Assembly: GCA_965224025.1 (NCBI GenBank)
Contig: OZ245033.1
Span: 1,440,001 to 1,504,000 of the forward strand
DNA length: 64,000 nucleotides
From: Candidatus Multivorans sp.
Lineage (GTDB): Bacteria; Acidobacteriota; Thermoanaerobaculia; Multivoradales; Multivoraceae
Reading direction: 5' to 3'
The position numbers were made by a program, and so were the translations under genes. The notes beneath the pieces were generated by a model. That model worked only from the letters and a program-made list of their open reading frames with translations. It was not told the DNA's origin and did not search any database. Of the stretch, positions 3,991-52,997 are shown piece after piece (positions within the stretch are counted from its first letter, which is position 1; each line of letters starts with the position of its first letter).

Positions 3991-3992
3991 GA

Positions 3993-4128
3993 TGTCATCC
4001 GTGCACTCGAGGACTCGCGCCCGGAGTGGTTCGCGGGTGGCGCCGAGCGCGCCACCCGGGTGTCATCCGTGCGCTCGAGGACTCGCGCCCGGAGTGGTTC
4101 GCGGGTGGCGCCGAGCGCGCCACCCGGG
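3993..4128. repeat. Two tandem copies of a 68-bp double-hairpin element (family A)
   Basis: 3993-4060 and 4061-4128 differ at one base. Homologous to 15379-15446 and 51997-52064. Confidence 0.92.
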
Positions 4129-4170
4129 TTGCAGTGTGGCACGCACGGTAACTGCCCGTATCATTGCCGC

Positions 4171-13716: not shown

Positions 13717-14838
13717 GTGGGCGCCTTGGACGGACTTCGGGTTCTCGATCTATCGCGGCTTGCGCCCGGGCCGTACTGCTCGATGCTGCTCGCCGACATG
13801 GGCGCGGACGTGCTGCGGGTCGACAACGCGGTGGGCGGACCGGTCCGATCCGGCGACATGCTGTCGCGGAACAAGCGCAGCATCGCGCTCAACCTGAAAA
13901 CGGCGGGCGGCGAGCGCATCCTCCACGAACTGGCCGCGGAGGCGGATGTCTTCCTGGAGGGTAACCGGCCGGGTGTTTGCGCCCGGCTGGGCTGCGACTA
14001 TGCGAGTCTCTCGGCGATCAATCCCGGTCTCGTCTACTGCTCGCTCACCGGCTATGGCCAGACCGGGCCGATGGCGCAGGCCGCCGGGCACGACGTGAAC
14101 TACATCGCGCTCGCCGGCGTTCTGTCGCAGATCGGCAACGGCCAGGACCCGCCCCTGCCGCCCCTCAATCTGGTCGCCGACTTTGGCGGCGGCGGCCTGA
14201 TGGCGGCCTTCGGCATCCTCTGCGCCCTGTTCGAGCGGGAACGGTCCGGCCGCGGCCAGTACATCGACGCCGCAATGATCGACGGAGCGGCCTCCCTGAT
14301 GGCCGTGCACTTCGCCCAGAAGGGCGCCCGCTCGACGCCCGGCGTCGGACTGCTCGGGGGCGGGGCCGCCTTCTACCGCTGCTACGAGTGCGAGTGCGGC
14401 GGCTACGTGTCGGTCGGCGCGATCGAACCGCAGTTCTTCGCGGCGCTGTGCGAGGGAACGGGCGTCGATGTCGCGGATGAGCAGATGGACACCGACTGCT
14501 GGCCGGCACACATCGATGCGTTCCAGCGGGCCTTCCTGACCCGGACCCGCGACGAGTGGGCCGAGGTGTTCAGCGAGCTCGACGCCTGTGTGTCGCCGGT
14601 GCTCGACCTCGACGAGGCGCCACGCCATGAGCACAACATGCAGCGGGGGACCTTCCCGATCGGCCCGGACGGAGAGATTCACATTGCACCCGCGCCGCGG
14701 CTGGAGCGGACGCCCGGCGACCTCCGCCGGCGCGAACCGCGCATGGGAGAACACACCGTAGATGTCCTCCAGGGTCTCGGCTACAGCGCCGGGGACATCG
14801 ACGGACTCGAACAGAACGGAGCGATCCTGAGAGCATGA
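13717..14838 (+). CDS. CaiB/BaiF family III CoA-transferase (alpha-methylacyl-CoA racemase-like)
   Basis: LDGLRVLDLSRLAPGP, RNKRSIALNLK, AGHDVNYIAL, NLVADFGGGG. Confidence 0.92.
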   Translation: MGALDGLRVLDLSRLAPGPYCSMLLADMGADVLRVDNAVGGPVRSGDMLSRNKRSIALNLKTAGGERILHELAAEADVFLEGNRPGVCARLGCDYASLSAINPGLVYCSLTGYGQTGPMAQAAGHDVNYIALAGVLSQIGNGQDPPLPPLNLVADFGGGGLMAAFGILCALFERERSGRGQYIDAAMIDGAASLMAVHFAQKGARSTPGVGLLGGGAAFYRCYECECGGYVSVGAIEPQFFAALCEGTGVDVADEQMDTDCWPAHIDAFQRAFLTRTRDEWAEVFSELDACVSPVLDLDEAPRHEHNMQRGTFPIGPDGEIHIAPAPRLERTPGDLRRREPRMGEHTVDVLQGLGYSAGDIDGLEQNGAILRA

Positions 14839-15356
14839 ACGACGCAAGCACGAACGATGGTCCGCCTAGAGCCGGCGCGGGCAGAGTCTTCGAGGACTTC
14901 GAAGTCGGCCAGATCTTCCGTCACGCCCTGGGGCGGACGGTTACCGAGGGCGACAACGTCTGGTTGACGATGATCACCCTGAACCCGAACCCGATCCACT
15001 TTGACCGCGAGTACGCCGGTCAGACGGAGTGGGGACGGCCCCTGGTCAACTCCTGCTTCACACTGTCCCTGGTCACCGCGCTGACCGTCGCCGACTTGTC
15101 CCAGAACGCGGTGAACCTGGGGTGGGACAGGGTCCGTCTGCCGCGCCCGGTGTTCGAAGGCGACACGCTGTACGCCCAGAGCGAGGTGCTCTCCGTTCGC
15201 GGGTCGAAGTCGCGCCCGCACCAGGGCATCGTGGCCTTCCGCACGGTCGGCTACAACCAGGACGGCCGGGCCGTCATCACCTTCGACCGGACGATCCTGG
15301 TCTACCGCCGCGGCCATGTGCCGGCGAAGCCGGTCCGTCCCGAGCTGCGCGCCTAG
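14835..15356 (+). CDS. MaoC-family (hotdog) dehydratase
   Basis: GRVFEDFEVG, GRTVTEGDN, NPNPIHFD, NLGWDRVRLPRPVFEGDTL. Confidence 0.9.
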   Translation: MNDASTNDGPPRAGAGRVFEDFEVGQIFRHALGRTVTEGDNVWLTMITLNPNPIHFDREYAGQTEWGRPLVNSCFTLSLVTALTVADLSQNAVNLGWDRVRLPRPVFEGDTLYAQSEVLSVRGSKSRPHQGIVAFRTVGYNQDGRAVITFDRTILVYRRGHVPAKPVRPELRA

Positions 15357-15512
15357 CGCGGAAGAACGATCTGACCTGGGAACCCGTGTGGCGCGACCCG
15401 CGCCACACGCGAACCACTCCGTGCGCCCGTCATCGGGCGCACGGATGGCACGCGGGCATCCTGCCCGCATCCGGCGCGAAGCGCCGGCCTCCGGTCGTTC
15501 TGCCGCGCCTAG
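15353..15512. repeat. Nested palindromic cassette between convergent genes: outer inverted repeat > family C element > family A unit (15379-15446)
   Basis: CTAGCGCGGAAGAACGATC (15353-15371) pairs imperfectly with GGTCGTTCTGCCGCGCCTAG (15493-15512). Inner parts match 22769-22813 and the 68-bp unit. Confidence 0.85.
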
Positions 15513-15513
15513 C

Positions 15514-16779
15514 CTAGCGGTCGCCGAGCGCCTGGTAGTCGCGGACGGTGGCCCCGGTATAAACCTGCCGCGGCCGGTTGATCCGGTTGTCCGGATCGCC
15601 GCGCATCTCCTTCCAGTGCGCCAGCCAGCCCGGCAACCGGCCCAGGGCGAACATGACGGTGAACATGTCCGTCGGCAGGCCCATCGCCCGGTAGATGATG
15701 CCGCTGTAGAAGTCGACGTTCGGGTAGAGCTTCCTCTCGACGAAGTACTCGTCCTGGAGCGCGACCTCTTCCAGGTTCCTGGCCAGCTCCAGCAGCGGGT
15801 CGTCGACGCCGAGCTGCTCCAGGACCTCGTCCGCGGCCCCCTTCAGGATGCTGGCGCGCGGGTCGAAGTTCTTGTAGACGCGGTGGCCGAAGCCCATCAG
15901 CCGGAACTCGTCGTTTCGGTCCTTGGCCCGGTCGACGAACCGGCCGTAGTCGTCGCCGCTGTCGCGGATCGCCTTCAGCATCTCGATCACCTGTTGGTTG
16001 GCGCCGCCGTGGAGCGGTCCCGACAGGGCGTCGATGCCGGCGGAGATGGCGGCGAACAGGCTGGCGCCGGAGCTGCCGACCATACGGACCGTCGACGTCG
16101 AGCAGTTCTGCTCATGGTCGGCGTGCAGAATGAGCAGCATGTTCAGCGCTCGAGACAAGACATCCGGCGGCTCGTAGGACTCGCAGGGCACCGAGAACAT
16201 CATGTTCAGGAAATTCTCCGCGTAGCCCAGGTCGTTCTGCGGGTACACGAACGGCTGGCCGATCGACTTCTTGTAGGAGAAGGCGGTGATCGTCGGCAGC
16301 TTCGCGATCAGGCGGACGACGTGCAGGTCGACGTCTTCGTCCTCCGAGTAGAAGGTCGCGAGCGACGAGATCATCGAGGACAGGATCGCCATCGGGTGAG
16401 CCGTCGGCGGGTAAGCCTCGAAGAACTTCTTCATGTCCTCGTGGATCAGCGTGTGCCGTCGCAGCTTCGAGCGGAAGTCGTCCAGTTCCTGCTCTGTCGG
16501 CAATTCGCCGTAGATCAGCAGGTAGCAGACCTCGACGAAGGACGCGCGCTCTGCGAGCTGCTCGATCGGGTAGCCGCGGTAGCGGAGGATTCCCCGCTCG
16601 CCGTCGATGAACGTGATCGCGCTACGGCACGATCCGGTGTTGCCGTAGCCGGGATCCAGGGTGATCGCACCGGTCTGGCTCCGGAGCGCCTGGCTGTGGA
16701 TTGCCAGTTCGCCCTCGGAGCCGAGGATAACGGGGAATTCGTACTCCTGATCGTCCAGATTCAGCTTGGCTACACCCAT
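15514..16779 (-). CDS. gltA: Citrate synthase
   Basis: DPGYGNTGSC, LILHADHEQNCSTS, GPLHGGANQ, LMGFGHRVYKNFDPRA, YPNVDFYSG. Confidence 0.96.
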   Translation of the reverse strand: MGVAKLNLDDQEYEFPVILGSEGELAIHSQALRSQTGAITLDPGYGNTGSCRSAITFIDGERGILRYRGYPIEQLAERASFVEVCYLLIYGELPTEQELDDFRSKLRRHTLIHEDMKKFFEAYPPTAHPMAILSSMISSLATFYSEDEDVDLHVVRLIAKLPTITAFSYKKSIGQPFVYPQNDLGYAENFLNMMFSVPCESYEPPDVLSRALNMLLILHADHEQNCSTSTVRMVGSSGASLFAAISAGIDALSGPLHGGANQQVIEMLKAIRDSGDDYGRFVDRAKDRNDEFRLMGFGHRVYKNFDPRASILKGAADEVLEQLGVDDPLLELARNLEEVALQDEYFVERKLYPNVDFYSGIIYRAMGLPTDMFTVMFALGRLPGWLAHWKEMRGDPDNRINRPRQVYTGATVRDYQALGDR

Positions 16780-16808
16780 ATCTGCTGTCCCACTTCGTGT
16801 TTTTCCCG

Positions 16809-16860
16809 GTAGCGGCCCGTTCCGGTTCAGAGTAGTAGCGGCCCGTTCCGGTTCAGAGTA
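16809..16860. repeat. Perfect 26-bp tandem duplication upstream of gltA
   Basis: GTAGCGGCCCGTTCCGGTTCAGAGTA x2. Confidence 0.95.
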
Positions 16861-16934
16861 TTCGGCTCGGTTGGCGTATTCGGCGCGGAGTGTAGCAGCC
16901 CTGCAAGCGGCAATGGGAGATTGCCTGGTCCGAT

Positions 16935-17619
16935 TCAGACGCCCCGTGTGTCGGCGCCCCACAGCGTCTTGTGAAGTTGCATGGAGACCCGTGCCGCCAG
17001 CCGATCTTCGAGTACCCAGGAGGCGAGTTCGGCAGGTTCGAGAGCGTCCCACACCGGCGACAGGTGGACGGTGCAACGGCGGTCGATCCGGTGTTTGCGG
17101 ATCGCTTCACGCGCCCACTCGTAGTCGCCACGGTCGGCGAGGACGAGCTTCACTTCGTCCGTCGAACGCAGCTCGTCGATGTTCGGCCAGTGGTTGTTCG
17201 AGGCTTCGCCGCTGGCGGGGCATTTCAGGTCGACGATCCGCCTTACCCGCGAATCCACTCCCGAGATGTCCAGCCCGCCGCCGGTCTCGAGCAGGACCAC
17301 AAGTCCCCGGTCGCAGAGCCCGCTCATCAGAGGATGAACGCCCGGTTGGAGCAGGGGTTCGCCGCCGGTGACTTCCGCCAGAGGGCAGCCGAACGCCAGC
17401 ACTTCGGTGATGACGTCCTCGACGCGCATCCACGTGCCTTCGTGGAAGCTGTACTCCGTGTCGCACCAACTGCATCGCATCTGGCAGCCGGTCAGGCGCA
17501 CGAGGACGCAGGGGCGGCCCGCGAAGGTCGATTCGCCCTGAATCGAGTAGAAGATCTCGTTGACCTTGAGCCGCTCCCTCTCGGGCAGCGCGGCGATCGG
17601 GTCGACCTGGTGGAGTCGA

Positions 17620-22039: not shown

Positions 22040-22860
22040 CCGTTGCGTCTCCGGTCGCGTTCTCCCGGCGCGGACCCGTCCTGGACCTTGCCGTCCTCGA
22101 GTACGCCGGGCGGGAAGGGCTTGCCGATCCACTCGCTGGTCAGCCGCGGCGGCGGGCGCCCGTCGGTGACGTTGCCGGGCCTGAGCTGGATCAGTTCGCC
22201 GGTGAAGTGCCAGTTCTCGTAGTCTTCCTGGCCGTTCCAGACGCGCATCGAGGGGCCGGGCGTGGCGCTGTAGACGCCCAGAATCGGTCCGGCTGTCGGT
22301 CCTTCGCCCTCCTCTTCGTTCGGAGGCGGTACGGCGGTCAGTGCGCCTCCGGCGGCGCCGCCGGCCGCACCGGTATTGGTCGCTCCAGCCCTCCCGGTTC
22401 GGCGGTTTCTCTGCTGGCCGGCGTTGTTTGGAGCTCCCTGCATCAGCAGACCCCAGCGGCCCTCCTCGTCCATCGGGTTGGGCCACAACTGCCGGATGAC
22501 CCGCGGTTCGACCTCGATGAGTTCCTCGAGCGCCGTCGGCAGGCGCCCGTGTCGGACCCGGAACAGGCGGATCGCCTCGGCGTACTGGAGCCCACGGAAG
22601 ATCAGCTCCGCTTCCTTCTGCCTCTTCGCCCAACTGCTCCAGTACGGCAGCGCCGCCGCCACGGCGACGTTCATCACCGTGATCAGGACGGCGAGCACAA
22701 CGAGGTTGTAGCCGGCCTCGGAGGATCGGTCCGCGGGGCCAGGAGCTTGGGCCGCAGAGCACCCCGCCCCTGGGAACGCGGGCGTCTCGCCCGCATCCGG
22801 CCTCAAGCGCCGGTCTGTAGACGAGTGTTGGAGACGGGACACCAGGTCACCAGTCGGCAT
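22036..22860 (-). CDS. Minor pseudopilin-like protein (type II secretion/T4P), with a long leader containing a repeat element
   Basis: Cleavage-like G|YNLVVLAV without Glu5, TM helix, [24 protein letters not shown]. Confidence 0.78.
22769..22813 (+). repeat. REP-like element family C inside the pseudopilin leader
   Basis: CCTGGGAACGCGGGCGTCTCGCCCGCATCCGGCCTCAAGCGCCGG aligns with the copy at ~15375-15487 once the 68-bp insert is removed. Confidence 0.8.
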
Positions 22861-51021: not shown

Positions 51022-52997
51022 CTACCGCCGCGGCCGCAGCACCATTCGCCGGTCACCCTCGCGCCGCGTCAGCCGCTGGCGGTCCAGGTGCTCCAGCAAC
51101 GGGATCGCCCATTTCCGGGTGAGGCCGAAGCGGTCCTTGAACTCGGTGACCGTGAACGTGTCCCAGCCGGTGGCGAGCAGGTCGCCCTGGAACTGCTCCA
51201 GGGCGCTGGCGGCCAGGATCAGGCCGTTCGGCAGCCGGGTCAGCCTGCCGCGCTCGACGAGGTAGCGGAGCACGCCGTCGAAGACCTGGGGTTTGGCGCC
51301 GATGCTGCGGCAGAGCTCCTCGGGGGACCCCGGGGTGAGTCCCTGCTTCTCGAATCCCTCGACGATGCTTTGCGCGAGCTTCGACTCGACGTCGGTCAGT
51401 TCGGCGGCGCGGCCGGGCAGGGTGACGAGTTCGCCTTCGACGGCTACCGCCTTGTCCGAACCGCCCTGACCGGCCCAGTTGAGGTAGGCGGGGGCGAGGT
51501 CGGCGGCATGCGTGCCGAGCAGCCGCCGCACCAGTTCGGCCTTGGGCATGCCGCGGGACAGGCGGTCGGCGGCGAAGTGCGCCTCGACCAGTCGGCGGGC
51601 GCTGCGGGAGACGTTGCGGACGGTGGCCGCGGAGACGAACCGTTCGGGTCCCGCCTCAAGCAGCAGGCCGTCCTGGGCGGCGCCGGTCAGCACGCTCGCG
51701 GCGTCGCCGCGGACGACCCCCAGGCGCACGCGAGTTCGGTGGCTGCAAGGCCCGCCTCCCGGCCGTCCGCCGCCCACTGCACGGCGGCCTCGCTGGCGCC
51801 CGCGGTCAGGGCGTCGATCGTCGTTCCGAGAGCCTTGCCGCGGCGGTGGCGCCAGGCCGGGTCCAGCACCTCGCCGCCGCCGAGTGTGGTTTGGGGCGAC
51901 GGCCGCCGGATCACGAAGCGGTCGCCGCGAACTGCCACCAGCGGTTCCTCCAGGCGGATCTCCGCCACCGCCTCCCCGCCCGGTTCCAGGCGTTCCACCC
52001 GTGCGCCCGATGACGGGCGCACGGACTGGTTCACGGGTGACGCGGATCGCGCCACCCGGGTTCCGGGCGCCAGCGGCCGGAGCTTGCCGACCCGCTGCGC
52101 GGCCATGACGTGCAGGCGGACGGAGCAGCTCCCCTCGATCGCCTCGGGCGCCGACGCCAGGAGGCGGCAGCGTACGAGCAGCGAAGTCGAGGCGCGGTAG
52201 ACGCCGGGTGTTGTCAGCTCGTGGCCTCGGGCGACGTCTTCCAGGCCGACGCCGACCAGTTGCAACGAGGTGCGTTCGCCGGCCTCCGCCCGTTCGCGGC
52301 CCTCGCCATGGACTTCGATGCCGCGCACCCGGGCGCGGCCGCCGCCGGGCAGGATGTCCAACTCGTCGCCGGTCGTGACGGTTCCCCTGGCCAGCGTGCC
52401 GGTGACCAGTACGCCGAGCCCCTTCAGGTGGAAGGCGCGGTCGATCGGCAGGCGGGCGGGTAGCCCGCTGTGGCGGTCGATCGGCGCCGCCTCGCCGGCG
52501 AGCCGGACCAGGGTCTCGCGAAGCTGGTCCAGCCCGGCGCCGGTCTCGGACGAGACGGGCAGGATGGGCGCTTCGGCGAACGGAGTGTCGGCGAGCGTTT
52601 CCTCGAGTTCCAACTGCGCCAGCTCCAGCAGATCGGGAGGCACCAGGTCCGTCTTCGAGAGCACCGCGACACCGGCCGGAATCCGGAGCAGCGAGCAGAT
52701 CGCGAGGTGTTCCAGGGTCTGGGGCATGACGCCTTCGTCGGCCGCCACGACCAGGACCATCATCTGGATTCCACCCAGTCCCGCGAGTGCGTTACGCACG
52801 AACCGTTCGTGTCCGGGCACGTCGACGAAGCCGATCTGCCAGCCGTTCTCGATCATCGACGCGAAGCCGAGATCGATGGTGATGCCGCGCCGTTTCTCTT
52901 CCTCCCAACGGTCGCAGTCGACCCCGGTCAGGGCCTGGACGAGGCGGGTCTTGCCGTGGTCGACGTGGCCGGCGGTGCCGACGACGAACCGCTTCAC
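51022..52997 (-). CDS. selB: Selenocysteine-specific elongation factor, with a frameshift near 51730 and an in-frame 23-aa repeat insertion
   Basis: GTAGHVDHGKT, EEKRRGITIDLGF, DVPGHERF, GVMPQTLEH. Winged-helix FKDRFGLTRKWAIPLLEHLD lies in the second frame. Confidence 0.93.
51996..52064. repeat. Family A element inserted in-frame in selB
   Basis: Aligns end to end with 15379-15446. Encodes GTRVARSASPVNQSVRPSSGARV and is flanked by GGAAC on both sides on the coding strand. Confidence 0.9.

Follow-up and report, generated by a model that had tools for sequence, protein, structure and literature searches.

A nested hairpin cassette between two convergent genes

The 64-kb window of contig OZ245033.1 from Candidatus Multivorans sp. 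(Acidobacteriota, Thermoanaerobaculia), which is the whole stretch of DNA analyzed here, carries a cassette of nested repeats at 15353-15512. Its innermost layer, a 68-nt two-hairpin unit that we call family A, is the subject of this study. Coordinates refer to the window unless prefixed with C1, a contig of the same genome, or L, a locus. The genome holding the window (G000) measures 5.14 Mb, in three contigs with 67.6% G+C; G003, G012, G016, G019, and G024 are relatives of the same genus, with G016 the closest. Analysis of the cassette confirmed three nested layers, in which an outer inverted repeat encloses a unit of the repetitive extragenic palindrome (REP) family C and this unit is in turn interrupted by the 68-nt family A unit.

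The cassette separates two convergent open reading frames (ORFs). The first, on the plus strand at 14835-15356, encodes a MaoC-like dehydratase (Pfam MaoC_dehydratas, E 7.6e-19), and its TAG stop codon lies inside the left CTAG (15353-15356) that forms the cassette boundary. On its left side the outer inverted repeat has the arm CGCGGAAGAACGATC (15357-15371; family O, consensus GCGCGGCAGAAC...), which pairs in the DNA fold with the right arm, GGTCGTTCTGCCGCG (15493-15507), beyond which lies the right CTAG (15509-15512). A second CTAG (15514-15517) holds the stop codon of the convergent citrate synthase ORF (15514-17076, minus strand; Pfam Citrate_synt, E 5.8e-142). Between the arms, all features run on the plus strand. 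The head of REP C, CCTGGGAAC, occupies 15375-15383, and family A starts directly after its GAAC. The A unit spans 15384-15451, ends in GGCAC followed by GC, and contains two hairpins detected by inverted-repeat search, with arms at 15385-15395 and 15399-15409 for hairpin 1 and at 15418-15429 and 15434-15445 for hairpin 2. REP C then resumes with the hairpin GCGGGC-ATCCT-GCCCGC (15452-15468), followed by ATCCGG and a second hairpin, CCGGCGC-GAA-GCGCCGG, up to 15487.

In silico removal of 15384-15451 leaves a remainder that aligns with an uninterrupted REP C unit at 22769-22813 (plus strand), the empty form of the site. Folded as single-stranded DNA, the 160-nt cassette forms one outer stem around four hairpins with an energy of -68 kcal/mol, compared with -38.4 +/- 2.8 for shuffled sequences (z -10.4; 0 of 200 shuffles as good). 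The 9-mer CCTGGGAAC directly precedes 85 of the 165 exact C hairpins in G000. Rfam, applied at gathering thresholds to the entire window, gives no match. The outer (O) arms enclose C-type or D-type REPs at many loci, ~40 genome-wide in G000. Their inverted repeat, GCGCGGCAGAAC...GTTCTGCCGCGC, occurs in an 85-nt form around a C-type REP and a 78-nt form around a D-type REP; it is often longer, CTAGGAGCTT...AAGCTCCTAG, making CTAG the tip of the palindrome.

This anatomy bears out what the initial annotation had described: the outer inverted repeat with CTAG ends between convergent MaoC-like and citrate synthase ORFs, the 68-nt unit whose excision restores the match to 22769-22813, and unit boundaries of GGAAC..GGCAC here and GGAAC..GGAAC in a selB copy, both then followed by GC. 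The more diverged boundaries that it gave for a tandem pair (GCAAC/GACAC/GACAT) also read as described. In that pair, at 3991-4131 on the minus strand, two A units lie head to tail, with the second starting at the 3' end motif of the first.

Copies of family A

Profile search (nhmmer, E<0.01) identifies 168 copies of family A in G000, 149 of them full length. The element is composed of two different GC-rich hairpins arranged as a direct doublet, each preceded by GAA(C), and ends in GG(C/A)AC. Inverted-repeat search recovered the two internal hairpins only, with no terminal inverted repeats in A. Both hairpins show compensatory changes among 146 distinct copies, with 26 double changes at pair 8-28 and 35 at pair 43-62, a pattern indicating that the source elements were under selection for their fold.

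Sorted by flank, the full-length copies lie in C (48), D (17), E (8), or alone between unrelated sequences (76 solo copies). Within C, family A interrupts the unit at one fixed position and in one orientation. The number of such copies is given as 36-48 of 149, reflecting a stricter hairpin check that finds no recognizable C hairpin in 12 of the 48 and assigns a few rows to D, E, or tandem contexts.

Two candidates for a larger mobile element were rejected. The 19 partial A matches in G000, considered as ends of a full-length element with A-like termini, are decayed or truncated copies and not insertion sequence (IS) termini. A composite transposon bounded by the direct A copies at C1:3369312 and C1:3371019, 1.7 kb apart, was dropped on finding that the flanks are a duplicated gene segment. 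At this locus (L063, C1:3368600-3371800), the 1.7 kb between the copies contains a C39-peptidase-like ORF, and the whole interval is missing in G019.

Target word and junction

Orthology was judged by flanking BLAST matches, and most sites come from six relatives that are kin, so the following counts are not independent. Eight A copies at unique loci in G000 are absent at the orthologous sites of relatives, and for all eight at least one relative presents an empty site with a single GAAC at the junction. These empty sites read CC-GGAAC-GCC in selB (two closest relatives), GC-GAAC-GT in a UvrD-family helicase gene, TCC-GGAAC-TT at C1:551958, ATC-GGAAC-TT at C1:3931970, GAG-GGAAC-GG at C1:3934009, GT-GAAC-CA at C1:3371019, GAC-GAAC-CT at C1:1119485, and CAC-GAAC-TG at C1:462907. 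The filled form at every one of these loci is GAAC followed by 68-70 nt ending in GG(A/C)AC. The two bases after GAAC at the empty sites are GC, GT, TT, TT, GG, CA, CT, and TG, and the next base in the 76 solo copies is similarly mixed (G 24, C 21, T 18, A 13). The reverse comparison placed 47 of 101 A loci of relatives in G000; three unique loci filled in relatives are empty in G000, where one carries CAAC (filled in at least eight genomes), one AAAC, and one no AAC.

Tallied over all full-length copies, the left 4-mer is GAAC in 115 of 149, and the right end is GGCAC for 62 copies and GGAAC for 28. The target is not duplicated: only 22 of the 149 copies have the same 4-mer on both sides. For two of the loci, C1:551958 and C1:3371019, an empty site with GAAC corresponds to a filled site whose right end is GCAC; the 3' word is therefore part of the element rather than a copy of the target. 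Judged from these filled and empty alignments, family A is a mobile insertion that targets (G)AAC and leaves no duplication.

The initial annotation had proposed that A inserts site-specifically into C at GGAAC followed by GC, and that selB was hit through a mimic of that site. A landing site with GAAC at a fixed position in C stands, together with orthologous C units that differ by the presence of A (L039 and L209, below). C is not the sole host, given the D, E, and solo copies, and the motif, found as GAAC in 8 of 8 empty sites, is shorter than proposed, (G)AAC, with variable next bases and no need for GC. In line with the selB proposal, the empty selB site in the two closest relatives contains the same 7-mer as C.

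The other repeat contexts refine the junction. In family D, the hairpin with its loop reads GCCGGCC-AGAA-GGCCGGC, and the empty loop ...CC-AGAA-GG... becomes ...CCAGAA[CCCGGG...GGATGGCA]GG... upon insertion. All contexts can be described by a 68-nt element, CCCGGG...GG(C/A)A, that directly follows GAA, with 1-2 nt of ambiguity in the junction wherever C comes next. Family E is a repeat of >100 nt, ...AGTGAGCGC...CTCCTCTCAAGCGC-NNNN-G-CACCTGGG...GGGCGGGTG, with a variable 4-mer and at least 28 uninterrupted copies (e.g., C1:487218 and C1:2529382). The 4-mer at the insertion spot of uninterrupted E units is TCAC in 10, GAGC in 8, GAAC in 6, and AAGC in 4. Family A is present in 7 of 13 GAAC-type units versus 0 of 22 units of the TCAC, GAGC, and AAGC types (Fisher p 2.6e-4).

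Existing A copies may also serve as targets. The tandem pair at 3991-4131, together with a joint in one metagenome contig that goes back 68 nt (comparison of 14700-16200), fits insertion into the 3' word of a resident copy. At the in-gene site C1:551958-552031 (L078), G016, without A, has GGATGGCGCT where G003 has GTCCGGAACT; the G016 form looks like a 69-nt in-frame deletion leaving the 3' end of A, and G024 carries a decayed A there.

In-frame insertions in coding DNA

The selB copy (51991-52063, minus strand) is a 69-nt in-frame insert that adds 23 aa to the SelB beta-barrel domain. None of the 11 aligned selB orthologues has it, the ORF stays open across it, and the Pfam Beta-barrel_SelB match is stretched across residues 337-441 in SelB. 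Another 23-aa insert lies in the N-terminal domain of the UvrD-family helicase. Genome-wide, 12 of the 149 full-length copies are read through by a frame with coding-like G+C at third codon positions on both sides. Insert length was measured for eight copies: 69 nt in six, 68 nt in one, and 70 nt in one. Cores of 73 nt, equivalent to a 69-nt insert, are over-represented in the copies that are read through (7 of 12 versus 27 of 137, p 0.006). Any GAAC could be hit, coding DNA included, and the multiple-of-three versions (69 nt) would survive there as 23-aa inserts.

The cassette is present or absent as one unit

At the orthologous junction in G016, G012, and G019, the whole 157-nt cassette is missing. 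The MaoC-like and citrate synthase stop codons overlap or nearly abut in relatives without the cassette, and in G012 both overlap within GGCTAGCGG. G024 and G003 carry unrelated inserts at this junction. Metagenome contigs of a ~94%-identical strain (four runs, three studies) also skip the cassette, joining 15357 to 15514 with seven other letters between, and in one run contigs identical to the window span the right edge of the cassette. No metagenome contig over 14700-16200 lacks A alone at this locus, a comparison confined to contigs, from which rare variants would escape. In each of the four public runs, the A and C portion of this interval reaches a word depth 100- to 400-fold that of the flanks, so these repeat families are very abundant in the communities holding the organism.

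Closely similar cassettes occur elsewhere. G016 carries cassettes 93-99% identical to that of the window at other loci, two of them without a counterpart at the orthologous G000 sites. Within G000, cassettes of the same build number about 10 filled and at least 6 empty. Family A in the window is identical over 73 of 73 bases to two other G000 copies. One cassette, at C1:2045017, has A identical over 73 of 73 bases and yet aligns over 151 nt with 94.0% identity (BLAST), which places all nine differences outside A. Family A is more uniform than the surrounding arms among the G000 cassettes.

The cassette is thus present or absent as a single unit, and the simplest reading is that a pre-assembled composite of outer repeat, REP C, and A landed between two stop codons. 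The three layers described in the initial annotation are present, and they were not built at this locus; the behavior of the cassette as a unit, together with the near-identical cassettes elsewhere, places the A-into-C event earlier and at another site.

Such events can be seen at other loci. At L209, the orthologous C unit is uninterrupted in G016 and G019 and bears A in G000, and at L039, C beside a conserved flank carries A in G016 and none in G000. L207 retains a C-like remnant without A in G016. The filled state is shared at L038 and L042, and different REPs altogether occupy L040, L048, and L055.

REP families C and D and their transposases

Family C has 212 nhmmer matches in G000, 145 of them uninterrupted and full length, and family D has 103 uninterrupted hairpins under strict criteria, with the loop AGAA in 62 and GGAA in 9. 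Within the genus, 25 of 42 genomes encode a Y1 transposase. In G016, a 226-aa ORF of the REP-associated tyrosine transposase (RAYT) type has seven C units upstream and eight downstream, in inverted orientation (NCBIfam NF047646, E 2e-22, 79.7 bits against a cut-off of 80; Pfam Y1_Tnp, E 5.9e-8). A second RAYT type is flanked likewise by D units, TCTGGGTGC-GCGGGCC-TTCT-GGCCCGC-ATCCGG. Inverted REP arrays flank RAYT genes in relatives at L019, L204, and L205 for C and at 14 loci for D. By their gene context, C and D qualify as REP families of the REPtron arrangement, with the heads GAAC (C) and GTGC (D). A copy of family A adjoins the C arrays at three of three C-type RAYT loci versus 1 of 14 D-type loci; the loci compared are possibly orthologous and thus not independent.

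Profile search of the G000 genome found no Y1_Tnp or RAYT, and tblastn of the G016 RAYT against G000 yielded nothing better than E 0.18. G000 appears to keep hundreds of REPs after losing its RAYTs.

Other features accompany the REPs of G000. The counterpart of the G016 REPtron locus (L019), C1:632019-633340, contains an unrelated minus-strand ORF, and nothing but a short CCCTGGGAACGCGGGTGGCGCG remnant survives at the edge of the locus. One IS110-family element (element 1) lies repeatedly in the 3' flank of REP D at GCGCACC^CAGT, for example at C1 288500-291500 and in 13-15 further copies. A copy of element 1 at C1:2679924-2681656 sits in a D unit already bearing A in its loop. A second IS110-family element (element 2; e.g., C1 111000-114000, and ~14 further copies) always enters the left outer arm at the point where CTAGGAG meets ACTGCGC-GGCAGAA, making the outer arms a specific IS target.

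A candidate mechanism and its rivals

We consider it reasonably probable that family A is a 68-nt non-autonomous two-hairpin element, joined after GAA(C) without duplication and moved by a RAYT/IS200-IS605-type enzyme, and that the cassette arrived pre-assembled. The enzyme and the single-strand chemistry are inferred from the pattern of the junctions. Cleavage and joining of single-stranded DNA would be carried out by a RAYT/IS200-IS605-type tyrosine (HUH) transposase, with the RAYT acting in trans; the likeliest candidate is the C-type enzyme, kept by relatives and lost from G000. GAA(C) is the conserved head of REP C (GGGAAC plus hairpin), and GAA is also offered by the AGAA loop of REP D, which makes REPs the commonest landing sites of A. 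Both targets, the 5' flank of the C stem and the D loop, are predicted to be unpaired in the folded REP. Oriented insertion after a fixed tetranucleotide, no duplication, a related 3' word, sub-terminal hairpins on one strand, and targets predicted to be unpaired together form the signature of HUH tyrosine transposases of the IS200/IS605 and RAYT types.

Several observations weigh against this RAYT-based proposal. Three A copies are identical over 73 of 73 bases although G000 lacks a Y1 transposase, implying either a very recent RAYT loss or composites moved by something else. IS200/IS605 elements usually show replication-strand bias, and the counts here, 93 versus 74, show no clear bias, although this test is weak given the very asymmetric origin and terminus from GC skew. 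Pairing of the IS608 type between guide and cleavage site is not readable from the sequence. The D loop has G, not C, after GAA, and a strict GAAC rule fails there. Finally, A and C are present or absent together at four of the seven other resolved A-in-C loci (L037, L044, L208, and L210). Both processes occur: A enters resident C units, and composites spread or are lost as units. Composite spread means that the 36-48 A-in-C copies do not represent that many independent hits, and many of them may derive from it rather than from separate hits.

The best surviving rival, though improbable as a full account, denies any insertion of A into C and invokes mosaics resembling bacterial interspersed mosaic elements (BIMEs), spread by recombination among modules that start with GAAC, such that the apparent target is a shared module boundary. 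Both A hairpins and the C hairpin are indeed preceded by GAA(C), A and C are often gained or lost together, and the cassette spreads as a unit. However, relatives have clean empty sites for solo A copies located in unique coding DNA, C occurs at orthologous positions both with A and without it, and the 68-nt unit is the exact difference between the filled form and the empty one. Mosaic assembly may explain part of the A-in-C copies.

A rolling-circle transposase of the IS91 type (Y2 HUH) is less probable still as the agent moving A. The IS91 family inserts next to GAAC or CAAG without duplication, and the targets of A (GAAC plus one CAAC), its oriented insertion, and the missing duplication agree with this. 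On the opposing side, A lies 3' of GAAC on its own top strand, a polarity that may not match IS91, and searches of G000 found no Y2_Tnp/IS91 match, but control genomes were equally silent, so absence is not shown.

Mobilization in trans by a resident IS110-family (DEDD) recombinase, which in this genome targets REPs, is very unlikely. G000 has 32 DEDD_Tnp_IS110 matches, and one IS type occupies the REP D 3' flank and the second the outer-repeat arm, indicating that REP-directed recombination is active in G000. The ends of neither IS type resemble those of A, and the two types insert at GCACC^CAGT and CTAGGAG^ACTGCGC rather than at GAAC. Equally hard to sustain is a cut-and-paste miniature inverted-repeat transposable element of a DDE transposase with GAAC as a 4-bp target-site duplication. 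GAAC does border some solo copies at either end (e.g., in selB, the UvrD-family gene, C1:3931970, and C1:3934009), but left and right 4-mers match in too few copies (22 of 149), the youngest copies, those within C, combine a left GAAC with a right GCAC, C1:551958 and C1:3371019 have an empty GAAC but a filled right end of GCAC, and A has two internal hairpins in place of terminal inverted repeats. All four rivals are weaker than the RAYT-based proposal.

Relation to known systems

The REP/BIME and RAYT pairing of REPtrons is among the closest known systems. C, D, and A are short GC-rich hairpins in high copy, mostly after genes; inverted arrays of C or D flank a Y1 transposase gene in relatives; and a conserved word stands directly 5' of the stem. 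RAYTs cleave beside REPs in vitro, and the 5' tetranucleotide helps choose the cut site (PMC8266576). The present families differ in having heads of GAAC (C and A) or GTGC (D), not GTAG or CGTC, in that A is a direct doublet of two different hairpins with a readable integration signature, and in the lack of a RAYT in G000. With IS200/IS605 elements, as represented by the IS608 model (PMC8266576), A shares its position 3' of a fixed tetranucleotide, the missing duplication, the sub-terminal hairpins on one strand, and a related tetranucleotide at the right end. Unlike them, A is only 68 nt long and gene-less, and a RAYT acting in trans would supply the enzyme; a weak test detected no lagging-strand bias.

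Rickettsia palindromic elements (RPEs) offer a parallel for the coding insertions: such palindromes add 20-30 aa in frame to functional genes, among them those of repair helicases, compared with 23 aa here. PMC3733652 reports in-frame REPs inside uvr and rec genes and REPs supplying TAG stops, and cites the Rickettsia RPEs. Family A differs from RPEs and intragenic REPs in belonging to another sequence family and another phylum (Acidobacteriota, Thermoanaerobaculia) and in a target word readable from empty sites. A nesting precedent appears in the same paper, in which Thermomicrobium roseum REPs are inserted within small palindromes of consensus CCGSSCC(n3,4)GGSSCGG (PMC3733652). The insertion of A in the D loop GCCGGCC-AGAA-GGCCGGC is comparable, except that the host palindrome D is itself a RAYT-associated REP and the junction is placed to within 1-2 nt.

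REPs are also landing sites for IS elements, as they are for the two IS110-family types in G000. IS1397, IS621, and ISPpu10 target REPs, and ISPpu9 does so as well. For ISPpu9, insertion in REPs is described in PMC8450116. Family A differs from all of these in its ends and is not itself an IS. A literature search that did not cover subscription journals returned no description of family A or of REP/RAYT systems in Thermoanaerobaculia. Every component is known from elsewhere; this case differs in its GAAC and GTGC heads, the two-hairpin doublet with readable target and junction, the phylum, and a REP-rich genome without RAYT.

Implications

For annotation, the finding accounts for long hairpin cassettes located exactly between the stop codons of convergent genes. 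At the protein level, SelB and a UvrD-family helicase of an uncultured acidobacterial lineage have each gained 23 in-frame residues from small hairpin elements. The exact A junctions can be compared between filled and empty sites across >40 related genomes, yielding a concrete prediction of the cut site of a tyrosine transposase.

The spread of REP-type repeats is still argued mainly from in vitro cleavage and copy-number patterns. A more speculative proposal, which we advance only tentatively, is that family A and its dozens of filled and empty pairs constitute a natural record of in vivo integration of RAYT-driven REP-type elements, entering as single-stranded units after the REP head word GAA^C, with the head acting both as the motif that the enzyme recognizes or cleaves and as its preferred target. 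If true, this would bring nesting, tandem arrays, and in-frame coding inserts under one rule and would define a GAAC-tagged class of REPs in Acidobacteriota.

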